Shown in pieces: positions 44,054 through 57,455 of a stretch of DNA of 64,000 bases (its first letter is position 1; each line of letters starts with the position of its first letter). Origin of the DNA: Candidatus Bathyarchaeia archaeon. Lineage in GTDB: Archaea; Thermoproteota; Bathyarchaeia; Bathyarchaeales; Bathycorpusculaceae. The stretch is taken from NCBI GenBank assembly GCA_049515895.1, contig JBEKTQ010000007.1, positions 64,001 to 128,000 of the forward strand, given 5' to 3'. The notes beneath the pieces were generated by a model. The model saw only the letters and a list, made by a program, of their open reading frames with translations. It had not been told where the DNA came from and did no database searches. The position numbers were made by a program, and so were the translations under genes.

Positions 44054-44076
44054 CCAAACTAAAAAAGTAAGTTTGG
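44054..44076 (-). terminator. Hairpin with T-tract in its loop between convergent genes
   Basis: CCAAACT-N9-AGTTTGG; minus-strand loop TACTTTTTT, just after the stop of 44083-45147. Confidence 0.45.
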
Positions 44077-44082
44077 GAGACC

Positions 44083-45147
44083 TCAGATGCCGAGGCTGTT
44101 GATTAATCTGCCCGAGTTGGCGTCAATAACCAAGACGATCTTGTTACCTTTGTGGTCAAACTTTGAGAACCAAACGGGAGTATGAAGCAGCTCCACATCA
44201 CCAATGTCTGAATCTGTGTGTATTGATTGTATCATGTGGTATTTCTCATGTGCCTTTTGTGATTGAAGCTGATCAACCAACGTCCTCGCTTGAGACTTGG
44301 CTACGTCTTCGCTGATGTCGCCATTTAAGATTTTGACATCTTTCGGCAGTTTGGAAATATCAAAAAGTTCTCTAGCTTCAAGGTTAAATTGGTAATCGCG
44401 CGGCTGATAATCAGAGAGAGCTTTTAGCGCAATGACGGGGAAGTTGTAGTTCATGTCCATCTGCTCAGACTTTCTCATTCCGCCGTACCCCATTCCCATG
44501 CCCCAAGCCATGATTCTTATTCGTTTAAGCCCAAGAATACCAGCAAACGGGTTGTCCCTTGATTCACCTGGAAAAGCGCGTCTTCCTCCCATTCCTCCAC
44601 CTCGTCTACCTCCGCCTCCTCCGAAACCTCCGCCCATCCCGCCGAATATTACCCCCATCAATGCAGCGGTTGTAGCTGTCTGCGCAATTTGCGCGGTTTC
44701 ATCTGCGGCAACTATGCTCGTTCTCGCTGAGACGCTTACAATCCAGTAAGGCACGAAAGTTAGGCTCATTTCCTCCTGTTTGGAGTCTTCGTGAAGGTGC
44801 CTGTGCAAGAGACCCTTATCCATCATAGGCACTATTATTGAATTCAATTGATCTACAGTAGCAACCTTCAAAGGTAGCATCGTCTGCTTCTGTATGTTAG
44901 TCCATCCTTGGCTCCCCAAAGTTACTCCGGTGCCACAGTACTCGCAGGTTATAACCATCTCTCCAAACTTTGGCGCAATCGGCGCCCCACAACTCGGACA
45001 CTTCAAGGATTGCACCCCTGAAGGGGCAAGGATAGGTCCAGTTGAGGTCGACGTCGGTTTAGCAGTATTTAATCCGGTGCTTGTTCCGCATTTAACGCAG
45101 AACGCGGCGTCATCTGGAAGTTGAGCACCACAGTTATGGCAGTACAA
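44083..45147 (-). CDS. Double zinc-ribbon domain protein with Gly-rich insert
   Basis: YCHNCG...FCVKCG and CPSCG...CEYCG; GGM/GR-rich segment; C-terminal IDANSG. Confidence 0.85.
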   Translation of the reverse strand: MYCHNCGAQLPDDAAFCVKCGTSTGLNTAKPTSTSTGPILAPSGVQSLKCPSCGAPIAPKFGEMVITCEYCGTGVTLGSQGWTNIQKQTMLPLKVATVDQLNSIIVPMMDKGLLHRHLHEDSKQEEMSLTFVPYWIVSVSARTSIVAADETAQIAQTATTAALMGVIFGGMGGGFGGGGGRRGGGMGGRRAFPGESRDNPFAGILGLKRIRIMAWGMGMGYGGMRKSEQMDMNYNFPVIALKALSDYQPRDYQFNLEARELFDISKLPKDVKILNGDISEDVAKSQARTLVDQLQSQKAHEKYHMIQSIHTDSDIGDVELLHTPVWFSKFDHKGNKIVLVIDANSGRLINSLGI

Positions 45148-47322: not shown

Positions 47323-48165
47323 TTAAAGATTCCTAAGTTGGTCCAGCGTTCCAAGATAAGTGCCGTCCAACAAGTAAAGCTCAGAGTTATCCACATCCAC
47401 AGCTTCAGAACGTAATACGGGTCCAATCAAGGCTCTGCTGCCGATTTCTTTTCTGGGTTTAGTTTCATTTACGGGTCTGCCGCCCAAGAAATCGTTAAAG
47501 CTGGGCATTATGAAAATTTCCTTTGCTTTGAGCTTTGCGTTATAATGTTTCCACAGCGTTTCAGCAACTGTGCCTTCGATTTTCACATGATGCTTTTGCA
47601 GCAGAATCTTCGCTAGGGCTTCAGTATTGCAGCTTGCCCTCATCCAGGCTTGCCTTATGATTTTGAAGCCTGCTGGGTCGCGGAAGACAACGACCGGGTG
47701 CAAGTGCCCCATCACCAACGTTTTGCAGCCAAGCAACGCAGGCGAAGGCCATTTGTGCCCATGAAAAACGCCGACGTCGCCGATTGCAATACCTGTGGAA
47801 GGCAGAAGCCTGATGTTCTCTGGCAGAAGCGGCTCGATGTTAGCGTCGTGGTTTCCGCGGACAACTGCTATTTCGCTGACGATGCTTTGCAGTTTAGTAA
47901 AGAAGTCGGGTACATCATGCCGCTCGCCTAGTTCGCTTGAAATAACTGTGTACTTCACGTCTCCGACAATTACCAACTGTTGCGGCTCGTATTTGCTGAG
48001 GATCGCCGTTAGCTTGTTGAGAATCTTGGGCGTCTGGCTTGGAATATGGATACCTTTTTGTTGAAGCTCCATCTCCCACCCGATGTGCGGGTCAGCGATA
48101 AGCAGAGTTTTTGTCTTTTCTGTTTTCACCATTGCTGCAGGGTTAGGCCAAAGTAGACTTAACAT
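47323..48165 (-). CDS. Metallophosphoesterase (calcineurin-like)
   Basis: ADPHIG, GDVK, GNHD, HGH, GHLHP motifs. Confidence 0.92.
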   Translation of the reverse strand: MLSLLWPNPAAMVKTEKTKTLLIADPHIGWEMELQQKGIHIPSQTPKILNKLTAILSKYEPQQLVIVGDVKYTVISSELGERHDVPDFFTKLQSIVSEIAVVRGNHDANIEPLLPENIRLLPSTGIAIGDVGVFHGHKWPSPALLGCKTLVMGHLHPVVVFRDPAGFKIIRQAWMRASCNTEALAKILLQKHHVKIEGTVAETLWKHYNAKLKAKEIFIMPSFNDFLGGRPVNETKPRKEIGSRALIGPVLRSEAVDVDNSELYLLDGTYLGTLDQLRNL

Positions 48166-48995
48166 TACGGTTTAACCAGGCTTAAGATTTTTTCGTGGAT
48201 TCTCTTGTTGCCCGAAGCTATGAAACTCAAAGTTCGCTTAGGGTCCAATTCAGCATTCAATGGTTGATTATCGGGAGTTGTTATTGTTCCGCCGGCCTCC
48301 TTAATGATGAGAAAGCTCGCCGCGACATCGGTGGTTCTGAGTTTTCCCCGCAGGTCGACAAACGCGTCTGTCGAACCGTCGGCCACGTAACAGAGCTCCA
48401 AAGCGTTGGCACCAAAATGGCGGATATGCTTAGTTTTTCCAATAAGCTCGGTTACTTTTGGCGCGACATCTTTAACTTTGTAAGTATTAAGATCTAACCC
48501 TATCAATGCATCATCCAACGAATCCGTTTTTGATGGCTCTATTTTTTTCCCTTCGCGGAATGCACCTTCGCCCAAAAAAGCGGTGTAAGTTACGTCATGG
48601 AAGAGATCTGCGACCAACCCAGCTTGGACCTCCGCAAGCCAAGCCTTATCGGAAACCGCAATGGAGCAAGCGTAGAATGGCAAACCATGCATGAAATTGG
48701 TGCTTCCATCAATCGGGTCAACAGTAACATGGCACTTTTCAGCTGAGGAGCCGAACTCTCGCACCCCTGACTCTTCACTGATTAGCTTGAACGAAATGTT
48801 GTGTTGGTTTAAGGTGTCAATGATTGCTTTTTCAGCAGCCAAATCCATCGGCTTCACCGCGTCGCCGCCTGCGCCCACACCCAGGTTAGGCTGCGTTTCT
48901 TTGATGGTTTTGAAGCACGGCGCAATGTTTTTTTGCACGTTGTTTTTGCATTCGAGAAGGATTTTTTGCCAGTTTGTTTGTTTCTGCATTTTCAT
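48165..48995 (-). CDS. suhB: Inositol monophosphatase / fructose-1,6-bisphosphatase (FIG family)
   Basis: SEE, DPIDGSTNF, TDVAAS motifs. Confidence 0.9.
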   Translation of the reverse strand: MKMQKQTNWQKILLECKNNVQKNIAPCFKTIKETQPNLGVGAGGDAVKPMDLAAEKAIIDTLNQHNISFKLISEESGVREFGSSAEKCHVTVDPIDGSTNFMHGLPFYACSIAVSDKAWLAEVQAGLVADLFHDVTYTAFLGEGAFREGKKIEPSKTDSLDDALIGLDLNTYKVKDVAPKVTELIGKTKHIRHFGANALELCYVADGSTDAFVDLRGKLRTTDVAASFLIIKEAGGTITTPDNQPLNAELDPKRTLSFIASGNKRIHEKILSLVKP

Positions 48996-49104
48996 TGATG
49001 GGTCTTCCTGATTGTTGTTAATAGATGGAACGAATTGATAAAGACTATACCCTACATTTCAACGGCTAAAAGTCGGAAGCAGCCGGTTAAACAGTAGTCT
49101 GAAT

Positions 49105-49121
49105 CCGAAATGCTTATATTT
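49105..49121 (+). promoter_or_regulatory. BRE-TATA promoter of the aromatic operon leader
   Basis: CCGAAA-TGC-TTATATTT about 40 nt upstream of the leader ATG. Confidence 0.6.
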
Positions 49122-49159
49122 TCTGTTTTATGACTCATTGAGCAAGGTTCGAAGCTTCA

Positions 49160-49243
49160 ATGTCAAATAACGTGTTGAAAAAAGAAAACGTTGCCTCATG
49201 GTTCCAGAGCTTCGACTACTTTTATTATAGTTATTTTCCTTAA
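49160..49243 (+). CDS. Aromatic-amino-acid-rich leader peptide (27 aa)
   Basis: MSNNVLKKENVASWFQSFDYFYYSYFP*; 1 Trp, 4 Phe, 4 Tyr in the last 14 codons; ends 56 nt before lysC. Confidence 0.85.
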   Translation: MSNNVLKKENVASWFQSFDYFYYSYFP

Positions 49244-49281
49244 GCCCAGAACTGGAAATTTTTTTTAGTAAAGTTCTGGGC
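49244..49281 (+). promoter_or_regulatory. Attenuator-like hairpin enclosing a U8 tract
   Basis: GCCCAGAACT (49244-53) / AGTTCTGGGC (49272-81) perfect 10-bp stem; T8 at 49259-66. Confidence 0.75.
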
Positions 49282-49299
49282 ACAGCATGGGTGTAGCAC

Positions 49300-50547
49300 A
49301 TGGAAAAAACTGGTCCAAACAGAACAATTGTCGTTAAATTTGGTGGTTCTAGCCTAGCGGATCACGAGAGGCTTTTAAAAGCGGTGGTTGCCGTGGTTGA
49401 TGAAGCCAAGAAGGGCACACGGGTCGCTGTCGTGGTATCGGCTATGGGTAAAACGACAGACGTTCTTATGACGACTGCGAAGAACGCTTCCAACGGGAAG
49501 CTGGAGAAGAAAGACCTTGACGACATCCTGTCGATGGGTGAGCGGACCAGCATCAGAATCTTCTCCACAGCGCTTAGAACCAATGGAGCAGAGTCCTGCT
49601 ACTTTGACCCGATCGACAGCAACTGGCCAATAATAACTGATTCAGCCTTCCAAAACGCTAACCCGATCCTCAAGGACTGCGAAAGAAACATCCGAGAATG
49701 TGTTCTGCCACTAGTGGAAAAAGGCACTATTCCCGTCGTGGCAGGTTTCTTGGGCAAAACCAAGGACGGGAAAATCACAACTCTGGGCAGAGGTGGAAGC
49801 GACACAACCGCGTTTGTCCTAGCCGAAGCGCTTGGAGCGGACGAAATTATCTTGGTGACTGACGCAGACGGCATAATGTCAGCAGACCCAAAAATGCTCT
49901 CCAACGTCGAGCGCCTCAAAGAAATCGACGTAAACACGCTGGTGGGACTCGCCGATTCTGGAGCTAAATTCATTCACAGCAAAGCACTAAAGTACAAACC
50001 CAAAAACATTAACGTCCGCGTCATCAACCATTCCCGCGGCAGCCTGTCGGAAGAAGGCACCTTAATCACAGGTGGATTGGCCACGGAACTTGACGCTGAA
50101 ATCGCGCATCCTTTCCCAGTTGCCGAAATCACCGTGATAGGAAACGGCATCTCGGCTAACCCGCAAATCATTCAGGAAATGGTTGAGGAAGCCAAGAGGC
50201 ACTCGCGTCTCTTGGGCATGTCAATGAACACAAACTCCGTAATCATTTATGTTTCAGAAGAGAAGAACTTGGAAGGGCTCTTCAACGACGTCCACAACAT
50301 AACAAAGAGCAACAAGGAAACCATCGCAATGGCCGTCAAAAAAGACCTTGTTTTCATAAAAACAAGCGGCGTCGGCTTAGAAGAGACCCACGGGATCATC
50401 GGAAAGATCAGCGAAGACCTGCGGCTCAGCGGCATAAACATTTCAGGCATACTAACAATAACATCAAGCATTCTTCTCTTTCTCGATTGGAACGAACGGG
50501 AAAAAGCCCTCAAACTAATTAAAAACTCTTTAAGGAGCGCTAAGTAA
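49300..50547 (+). CDS. lysC: Aspartate kinase
   Basis: VKFGGSS, VVSAMG, TTLGRGGSD, ADP motifs; C-terminal ACT-like region. Confidence 0.95.
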   Translation: MEKTGPNRTIVVKFGGSSLADHERLLKAVVAVVDEAKKGTRVAVVVSAMGKTTDVLMTTAKNASNGKLEKKDLDDILSMGERTSIRIFSTALRTNGAESCYFDPIDSNWPIITDSAFQNANPILKDCERNIRECVLPLVEKGTIPVVAGFLGKTKDGKITTLGRGGSDTTAFVLAEALGADEIILVTDADGIMSADPKMLSNVERLKEIDVNTLVGLADSGAKFIHSKALKYKPKNINVRVINHSRGSLSEEGTLITGGLATELDAEIAHPFPVAEITVIGNGISANPQIIQEMVEEAKRHSRLLGMSMNTNSVIIYVSEEKNLEGLFNDVHNITKSNKETIAMAVKKDLVFIKTSGVGLEETHGIIGKISEDLRLSGINISGILTITSSILLFLDWNEREKALKLIKNSLRSAK

Positions 50548-57202: not shown

Positions 57203-57455
57203 ACTCGAACTGTACAGAAAACAGGTTGATCAAATTGACGATTTGATTTTGAAAGCGCTAACTGAAAGAGTCAAGATATGCATGGCCATCGGTTTAGTAA
57301 AGAAAAAACGGGGCATCCCAATAAAAGACCTCTCCAGAGAAAACGACGTTTACAGAAAAGTAAAAGACAATTCTGCCGAATTCGGCTTAGATTCACAGAA
57401 GCTTGAGGCAATCTACCGCGAAATAGTTAATATGTGCAGTGCAGTTCAAGAGTAA
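57192..57455 (+). CDS. Chorismate mutase (AroQ type)
   Basis: LELYRKQVDQID...ER...IGLVK...D.SRE. Confidence 0.92.
   Translation: MLDELELYRKQVDQIDDLILKALTERVKICMAIGLVKKKRGIPIKDLSRENDVYRKVKDNSAEFGLDSQKLEAIYREIVNMCSAVQE

Follow-up and report, generated by a model that had tools for sequence, protein, structure and literature searches.

A candidate ribosome-sensing leader ahead of the aromatic amino acid operon in Bathyarchaeia

Does the short, aromatic-rich open reading frame (ORF) that precedes the aromatic amino acid (aro) operon of a Bathyarchaeia archaeon report the position of a ribosome to the genes behind it, and through which RNA element? The locus lies in a 64,000-nt stretch of contig JBEKTQ010000007.1 (GenBank assembly GCA_049515895.1, positions 64,001 to 128,000 of the forward strand), hereafter the window, where a putative promoter, a 5' untranslated region (5'UTR) of ~16 nt, a 27-codon ORF, a hairpin that we call H, a Shine-Dalgarno (SD) motif and an aspartate kinase gene follow one another in that order (Table 1). 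Amino acid sensing by leader peptides is a bacterial mechanism that needs translation to be coupled to transcription and makes use of hairpin terminators; in archaea the two processes are also coupled, but termination takes place at U-tracts with FttA/aCPSF1. An earlier note had read this region as a regulatory leader, and our analysis of its layout, conservation and folding states supports that reading, making it very probable that the leader as a whole is a ribosome-sensing attenuator. Two helices appear to be under selection, H and a pairing of the 5'UTR with the ORF termed (a), and the ribosome, rather than another helix, would compete with each. That the ORF is translated, which direction the switch takes and by which step it acts on expression are what we infer from these observations.

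Leader ORF, hairpin H and helix (a)

The leader ORF ends in a dense run of aromatic codons, with Trp, Phe or Tyr at 9 of its final 14 residues, a density reached by only 2 of the 29,602 small ORFs of its own genome, the leader included. Among 401 sampled genomes of the order, 218 have this type of kinase. A first set of loci was extended by 60 more from seven families, 59 of them usable. Excluded from all leader counts are one locus whose kinase is cut at the contig end (L091) and three loci of an aspartate kinase paralogue (L029–L031), at which the leader ORF is absent. We find the kinase orthologue in 24 of 24 searched genomes of the genus and the small ORF in all 24. Every one of the 27 orthologous loci in the first set has the leader ORF, and 55 of the 59 further loci have an ATG-started ORF of 12–32 codons, with at least five aromatic residues in its last 15, that ends 44–78 nt before the kinase, for an overall count of 82 of 86 orthologous loci of this order of Bathyarchaeia. 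The four misses comprise a locus that ends at the contig edge (L075), two where the aromatic frame is read through without an ATG start (L074, L078) and one (L079) whose aromatic stretch was read by eye only and not translated. The peptides differ by family (SFDYYFYYYHFP, FYSFSYFFYN, FTYYFSGYWFTY, RFFSGYATYTTY, PFFGSFGYFGY), and despite this drift the aromatic residues always occupy positions −1/−2 to about −13, counted back from the end of the ORF, and never lie beyond about −17.

In other orders, a leader with an abutting hairpin is found in eight families (f14, f16, f19, f27, f30, f32, f34 and f37). No leader ORF was found before the kinase in f26 and f35 (L153–L156, L158, L159, L167–L171), where an open frame of 430–500 codons extends beyond the kinase domain on its upstream side; the kinase there is either part of a fusion or has coding sequence in front of it. 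No leader passed the filter in f15, where a short aromatic ORF seems present by eye, and f17 gave only weak candidates, none with a convincing abutting hairpin, before a kinase that is ~40% identical and may be of another type. When the 29,602 small ORFs of the window's own genome were screened for those that combine a biased tail with an abutting hairpin and a gene downstream, 38 candidates emerged, among which only the aro leader is convincing, and no Trp-rich leader is seen before trpE (C8:68268-68596), where the sole nearby small ORF, MRNYIWRSRHTNQTS, has one Trp.

The stem of H, GCCCAGAACT with AGTTCTGGGC, is perfectly paired and worth −17.7 kcal/mol alone. In an alignment of 24 genus relatives (A1), 97.5% of its 240 cells are paired, compared with at most 51.3% in slid controls; no pair is lost, and three pairs vary, only to G-U. 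The idea that a ribosome at the leader stop would cover the 5' arm of this stem is supported well beyond the genus: of 82 leaders, 64 have their strongest downstream hairpin starting 0 nt from the stop codon and 81 have it within 5 nt, its stability averages −16.1 kcal/mol, and a gap of 0 combined with a ΔG of −13 kcal/mol or lower occurs in 61 of 82 leaders versus 28 of 2992 random small ORFs of the window's own genome. This strict contact of stop and stem implies that the signal read is whether the ribosome reached the end of the ORF. Across lineages, the 5' arm starts in 32 different ways and the stems are unrelated in sequence between families, which, at a constant place, amounts to covariation on a large scale.

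Within the wider lineage of the window's own type (group A, 38 leaders), one-sided changes in H give 13 wobble versus 4 broken cells, and 3 cells are compensatory. Arms of H from the same species pair better than permuted arms, with 0 of 2000 permutations as good over 37 rows. RNAalifold, run on 35 group A leaders, predicts exactly two helices, H and the core of (a), and a scan of the same sequences for runs of at least five column pairs kept in at least 85% recovers H (9 bp), the (a) core (5 bp) and two wobble-rich 5-bp runs. The whole leader region folds slightly better than shuffles (z of −1.44 and −1.70). The sequence pattern of H has no second copy in its own genome, Rfam 15 gave only three chance-level matches over window positions 48000–50500 (E 3.8–6), none of them in the leader, and six leaders of other orders gave no Rfam match at E ≤ 1.

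Helix (a) joins TCGAAGCT in the 5'UTR (49149–49156) to AGCTTCGA in the ORF (49208–49215), with −7.8 kcal/mol. Of 154 lettered cells in A1, 96.1% are paired (slid controls, at most 48.7%), and across group A the duplex comprises 9–13 bp with −10.1 to −18.1 kcal/mol in 35 of 38 rows, the three others (L037, L050, L073) not being counted as their windows were mis-set. One-sided changes in the core produce 17 wobble versus 4 broken cells, the ORF box is conserved at synonymous sites, and several variants restore or extend pairing: GAC becomes GAA or GAG opposite U, one U of the 5'UTR is lost and a bulge with it, and GCUAUA stands opposite UAUAGC. Matched partners pair better than permuted ones, with 0 of 2000 permutations as good (37 rows, without L073), although here, as for H, kin are not independent and the permutation tests overstate the support. 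Other families, too, have a helix that links an early leader segment with the first of the aromatic codons. Its counterpart in the group C leaders, which begin MDKPxATT, is an internal helix in which AUAGCCAC(U), in codons 4–6, pairs with (A)GUGGCUAU in Ser-Gly-Tyr codons (L056–L061, L076, L077, L083, L087, L088), varies only to G-U, and beats at least 95 of 100 shuffles in 9 of 11 leaders.

A further sequence resemblance was seen among these leaders. In f14 (L160, L172), the stop-abutting hairpin GCTTCGAAACC...GGTTTCGAAGC, followed by T5, lies ~0–45 nt past the leader stop and shares the motif TTCGAAGC with both arms of the window's (a), and TTCGAC appears again in the 5'UTR and ORF of f30 (L174, L175). 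This recurrence may be a coincidence of Phe-Asp/Glu codons or may reflect a sequence-specific role.

Table 1. Features of the aro leader and its candidate pairings, in window coordinates
Feature	Position	Strand	Remark
Putative archaeal promoter, B recognition element (BRE) and TATA box, CCGAAATGCTTATATTTT	49105..49122	+	near-invariant block in 23 of 24 genus relatives
5'UTR box, AAGGTTCGAAGCTT	49144..49157	+	5' arm of pairing (a); the leader ORF's SD-like AGGT lies within it
Leader ORF, MSNNVLKKENVASWFQSFDYFYYSYFP and stop	49160..49243	+	27 codons
ORF box, AGCTTCGA	49208..49215	+	codons Ser17-Phe18-Asp19; 3' arm of pairing (a)
Pairing (b), CCAGAGCTT with AAGTTCTGG	49204-12 with 49271-79	+	one G-U; genome-specific, not conserved
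Pairing (c), TTCCAG with CTGGAA	49202-07 with 49252-57	+	chance-level complementarity
Hairpin H	49244..49281	+	10-bp stem 49244-53/49272-81, 18-nt loop; directly abuts the leader stop codon
U8 tract	49259..49266	+	within the loop of H
SD motif GGGTG of the kinase gene	49289..49293	+	7 nt 3' of H, 6 nt before ATG 49300
Aspartate kinase gene	49300..50547	+	first gene of the aro operon; Pfam matches

Ribosome position and the direction of the switch

Folding with part of the RNA masked, from −15 to +14 of the A site in keeping with the size of a ribosome footprint, separates early from late ribosome positions. In the free RNA of the window's own sequence, H forms with a predicted probability (P) of 0.98 and (a) with 0.96, while the two other pairings, (b) and (c), are at 0.00. 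A mask at codons 14–23 leaves H at 0.98 and reduces (a) to 0, and a mask at codon 26 (Phe, −2), codon 27 or the stop abolishes H. With the mask at codon 27 or the stop, the freed 3' arm of H takes up (b) with P 0.77–0.86 and the accessibility of the SD motif drops from 0.52 to 0.25–0.29; (c) stays at 0.00 in all masked states. The earlier note had proposed this kind of constrained folding as a check of its pairings, and its outcome is divided, with (b) becoming the predicted state in the window's own sequence and (c) never populated. Among 72 leaders, SD accessibility with a ribosome at the stop, relative to one stalled upstream, is lower in 30, higher in 10 and unchanged in 32; the mean unpaired probability of the SD motif is 0.38 in free RNA and 0.40 with the stalled ribosome.

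The U-tract of this leader lies in the loop of the hairpin, unlike that of bacterial terminators, and on this point the earlier note is borne out by group A: at least five T in the loop in 27 of 38 leaders, at least four in 35, and a T-run after the stem in none. Outside group A the picture is mixed, and overall 19 of 82 leaders carry a run of at least four T within 3 nt after the stem. The accessible part of PMC8716108 describes termination efficacy in archaea as set jointly by aCPSF1 and U-tracts of 4–7 U, with an upstream hairpin not strictly required, and that of PMC11616081 has FttA take RNA straight from the exit channel and hypothesises that a coupled ribosome excludes it. By length, the U8 tract of the window qualifies as an archaeal U-tract (at least 4–7 U), and the combination of a conserved T-run in the loop with none after the stem suggests exposure of the U-tract as one route in the genus.

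A second looped U-tract had been claimed at 44054–44076. There the loop holds T6 on the − strand and A6 on the + strand, so that the claim stands for the − strand only; the stem is CCAAACT/AGTTTGG, and the element, 7 nt past the end of a − strand zinc-ribbon gene (44083–45147), is probably the terminator of that gene. That terminators in this genome generally take the form of a U-tract held in a hairpin loop is ruled out by a genome-wide comparison, in which T-tracts with a flanking inverted repeat of −8 kcal/mol or lower make up 11.5% of 433 tracts after genes versus 20.7% of 934 inside genes.

Our preferred reading, which we hold to be somewhat probable, is a leader-peptide attenuator that obeys the logic of the bacterial trp and phe leaders: an upstream stall lets H fold and keeps the operon on, and a ribosome at the stop turns it off. 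A ribosome on aromatic codons 14–23 would open (a) and leave H folded, and one at codon 26, 27 or the stop would open H. When charged aromatic tRNAs are scarce, the ribosome would stall upstream, H would fold and the operon would be expressed; with these tRNAs in ample supply, it would run on to the stop and hold the 5' arm, and expression would fall. An open H would leave both the U-tract and the 3' arm single-stranded. In the window's own genus, the likely route onward is that the single-stranded U-tract is reached by the U-tract-dependent termination machinery (FttA/aCPSF1), and in other families that the pyrimidine-rich 3' arm pairs with the SD motif, which follows within a few bases. Helix (a), which contains the SD-like AGGU of the leader, would close the leader's own ribosome-binding site (RBS) once codons 17–19 are made, and probably restricts leader translation to ribosomes loading before codons 17–19 are transcribed. 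The idea of caging or exposing a U-tract, put forward in the earlier note, is thus retained through the opening of H by the ribosome, and not through competition among (a), (b) and (c). Models in which a nearby ribosome prevents termination are disfavoured because expression in aromatic plenty is the wrong sign for a biosynthetic operon.

Several observations weigh against this preferred reading. The conserved helices are not mutually exclusive, and the classic terminator/antiterminator layout is missing in the genus. Aromatic codons are strongly kept at −1/−2, where a stall would open H in the same way as a ribosome that has reached the stop. The fate of the freed 3' arm follows no rule among relatives, in which its partner lies upstream or downstream or is missing, and group A offers it no conserved downstream partner, the N-terminus of the kinase being variable. 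The effect on the SD motif is a weak trend (mean unpaired probability of 0.40 with the ribosome stalled vs 0.31 at the stop, among kin that are not independent), and a cruder earlier folding run gave lower accessibility in 26 of 82 leaders and higher in 15. Three group A leaders have no T-run of at least four near H, and in f14 the hairpin is a terminator-like perfect 12–13-bp stem followed by U5. RNA polymerase, moreover, reaches U8 at a time when the 3' arm is not yet transcribed, and H therefore cannot govern intrinsic termination there.

Three related designs were tried and set aside. Sequestration of the SD motif as a universal switch was dropped as the two masked-folding runs gave only a weak trend. 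A conserved downstream partner for the freed 3' arm was also dropped: in the window's own sequence GUUCUG could pair with CAGAAC in kinase codons 7–9, but this end of the kinase varies among relatives. Pairing of the aromatic tract with the kinase start, after the mycobacterial model, is present in the minimum free energy (MFE) structure of the window's own sequence, but a stalled ribosome does not raise the accessibility of the start codon.

The same sensor could also work in the opposite direction, with H as the OFF element, either terminator-like or hindering the kinase RBS; this is the main rival, and we regard it as unlikely without being far-fetched. A ribosome held on −1 to −3 would block H and the operon would be read, and in plenty the ribosome would leave, H would fold and expression would be low. 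It accounts directly for aromatic codons that run up to −1/−2 in every lineage, for a stem with a gap of 0 from the stop and for the loss of H with a mask already at codon 26, it requires no further RNA element, and the terminator-like f14 stem and the 19 leaders with a T-run just after the stem fit it. The passage of RNA polymerase over U8 ahead of the 3' arm also favours it. It also resembles the mycobacterial polycysteine short ORFs, where, in the accessible part of 10.1101/834739, a stalled ribosome blocks an inhibitory structure. In the window's own lineage, however, the T-run lies in the loop and after the stem in 0 of 38 leaders, and the SD motif is not within H. A starved ribosome should, moreover, stall first at −13 to −4, where H stays folded, so that the opposite direction leaves the conserved aromatic codons from −4 to −13 without a role; and a ribosome at the stop in plenty would open H too.

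Rival structures and the genomic setting

A different kind of explanation places the signal in the DNA: a dimeric repressor of the aro operon would bind the near-palindromic TTCGAA boxes together with the inverted repeat GCCCAGAAC...GTTCTGGGC, and the aromatic ORF would be incidental or encode a small protein in its own right. The arms of the repeat are near-invariant in group A and partly so in f7 though the loops vary, the 5'UTR box coincides with the inferred transcription start, roughly a position that archaeal repressors often occupy, leaders of other families also contain TTCGA-type motifs, and symmetrical double changes fit a palindrome as well as a hairpin. Against this, one-sided changes are nearly all G-U or U-G on the + strand and break the symmetry of the DNA, which argues for RNA rather than a DNA operator; the spacing of the GCCCAG–CTGGGC arms varies widely among stems, as judged by eye; the unrelated stems of other families always abut the stop codon, which an operator has no reason to track; and the aromatic bias of the ORF is kept while its sequence drifts. 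We consider a DNA operator improbable.

Least probable is the model of the earlier note, in which the segment encoding F15-Q16-S17-F18 (49202–49215) is a hub of three exclusive pairings, (a), (b) and (c), that cage or expose the U-tract or the kinase RBS, and which is largely refuted by a lack of conservation. The four complements that it described, (a), (b), (c) and the stem of H, are correct in letters and position, (a) is conserved, and in the window's own sequence (b) does replace (a) and H, with the drop in SD accessibility described above, once the mask reaches codon 27 or the stop. Alone, however, (b) is worth −9.3 kcal/mol, and forcing it costs +6.3 kcal/mol relative to the MFE of −42.7; (c) is worth −4.1 and costs +14.2. 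In A1, (b) is 76.9% paired, but only 3 of the 24 rows retain the G-C pair at its centre and 21 have it broken, and in most relatives it is reduced to a 5-bp AGCUU/AAGUU core, whereas (c) is paired in 50.0% of cells, the level (36.8–51.4%) obtained when its partner is slid by 1–3 columns. Neither is among the conserved helices, and the fate of the freed 3' arm varies among relatives. In 500 dinucleotide shuffles of 49141–49300, 316 give the same 14-nt window at least three partners of at least 6 bp (G-U allowed) and 190 give it a partner of at least 8 bp; three partners are hence at chance level. The comparison across homologous leaders that the earlier note had suggested thus retains H and (a) and loses (b) and (c), and with these two conserved helices free of overlap, no switch of RNA against RNA is conserved in the genus. 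Functional interest accordingly lies in H, helix (a) and the aromatic codons, and not in (b) or (c).

A pairing that is truly exclusive with the hairpin is found in other families. In f5 and f7, the part of the 5'UTR immediately ahead of the leader ATG strongly matches, by complementarity, the hairpin's 5' arm, e.g., AACUGGGC with GCCCAGUU, at −17.0 kcal/mol versus −5.8 for shuffles, with extremes reaching −18.7 versus about −8. Such complementarity beats at least 95 of 100 shuffles in 23 of 82 leaders, and is seen in L027, L028 and L071 (f5) and in L044, L046, L047, L062–L064 and L070 (f7). It is absent from the window's own sequence, which gives −7.1 vs −6.7 kcal/mol, with 35 of 100 shuffles as good.

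Upstream of the leader, the conserved BRE/TATA block suggests the identity of the promoter; the count of relatives that carry it leaves out L019, the 24th, which ends at a contig edge. From the usual distance between an archaeal TATA box and its start site, we infer transcription to begin near 49141–49146. Within the 5'UTR box, GGTTCGAAGC is near-invariant among relatives and is paired in the MFE structure, and the SD-like AGGT stands 11 nt before the leader ATG here and 8 nt before it in most relatives. Downstream, the earlier note's choice of GGGTG as RBS is supported by a conserved SD motif, whose G's are near-invariant in the genus alignment and which is part of none of the conserved helices. 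An out-of-frame ATG at 49287, within CATGGGTG, opens a 16-codon ORF (49287–49337) that overlaps the kinase start and is probably incidental, since it is absent in several relatives. Also rejected, as considered from sequence only, were a promoter in the loop of H, a frameshift, and read-through of the stop into the kinase; the kinase frame has a stop at 49294–96, and the loops of other families are not A/T-rich.

The operon behind the leader comprises 11 genes by their Pfam matches and extends to 60066. The kinase is followed by a DeoC-type aldolase (AroA'), 3-dehydroquinate synthase II (AroB'), dehydroquinase (AroD) and shikimate dehydrogenase (AroE), and then by a GHMP (shikimate) kinase, EPSP synthase, chorismate synthase, an aminotransferase, prephenate dehydrogenase and a glutamine amidotransferase (GATase), a gene set that we take to be the archaeal aromatic amino acid pathway starting from aspartate semialdehyde. 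The gene earlier labelled lysC, which encodes an amino acid (aspartate) kinase, is thus the one that opens the aro operon, and what the note called control codons specify Trp, Phe and Tyr. Two more aspartate kinase matches in the same genome (C10:42479-43636, 39% identity; C7:163495-164484, 32%) make the kinase controlled by the leader look dedicated to the aromatic pathway. Kinases 88–93% identical to it occur in metagenome-assembled genomes of Candidatus Bathyarchaeota/Bathyarchaeia. A gap of 231 nt between the chorismate synthase and aminotransferase genes (57203–57433) could hold a second promoter or regulatory element.

Comparison with known systems

Among open-access papers and preprints, the scope of our literature search to the exclusion of subscription journals, we found no archaeal leader-peptide attenuator and nothing on the regulation of aro genes in Bathyarchaeia; PMC6393860, in its accessible part, mentions Bathyarchaeota and a "leader peptide", but as a secretion-type leader. 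It is possible, though doubtful, that the locus represents the first archaeal leader-peptide attenuator, old and widespread in Bathyarchaeia, with a single stop-abutting hairpin whose opening exposes a U-tract to FttA/aCPSF1 and a second helix that gates leader translation to the pioneering ribosome. If true, it would offer a mutable system for studying how ribosome position affects the archaeal polymerase or translation initiation, a natural test bed for the proposed exclusion of FttA by the ribosome, and a view of how Bathyarchaeia regulate the synthesis of aromatic amino acids.

The attenuators of the Escherichia coli pheA and trp operons (pheL, trpL) consist of a short ORF with codons for the pathway amino acid near its end, before the first biosynthetic gene, in which the stem begins right after the stop and a ribosome at the stop masks its 5' arm; pheL ends in Phe-Pro-stop, and the RNA comprises four segments with exclusive 1:2, 2:3 and 3:4 pairings and a terminator made of a hairpin and a U-run. 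The window's leader resembles these in its aromatic ORF before the operon, in the stem at the stop and in a Phe-Pro-stop ending, and differs in having one hairpin after the ORF, with the U-tract in its loop and, in the genus, no conserved partner found for the 3' arm. Measured by what defines trp, phe and his attenuators, an ORF with clustered cognate codons between promoter and first gene is present, a hairpin followed by a U-run is missing in the window's own lineage and found in some other families, and a conserved exclusive antiterminator is missing, with f5 and f7 possibly having one. The host is also archaeal, with a polymerase that, in the accessible part of PMC8716108, terminates at U-tracts without needing a hairpin.

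The mycobacterial polycysteine leaderless short ORFs, as presented in the accessible part of 10.1101/834739, share a tract of one kind of codon before a cognate operon, a stall that changes the RNA, and the lack of a classic terminator. They differ from the aro leader, where the SD motif is outside the conserved helices and is not made more accessible by a stalled ribosome; translational attenuation of the erm, cat and mycobacterial Cys type does not describe it, as the SD motif is 7 nt outside H and is not sequestered. Relative to archaeal aCPSF1/FttA U-tract terminators, the U8 tract is within the 4–7+ U range (PMC8716108, accessible part), but those known lie at gene ends or inside operons and are described without flanking stems (accessible parts of PMC8716108 and PMC11616081). 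The U-tract studied here lies in a 5' leader, in the loop of a 10-bp stem, an arrangement unusual in its own genome too.

In the tna operon, the position of the ribosome at the end of TnaC decides the access of Rho, free tryptophan is sensed through a conserved peptide, and a catabolic operon is turned on. The aro leader differs in that its peptide is conserved only in aromatic content and its operon is biosynthetic; the likeness lies in a ribosome at the end of a leader gating factor-dependent termination, which would be the analogue of the proposed FttA step.

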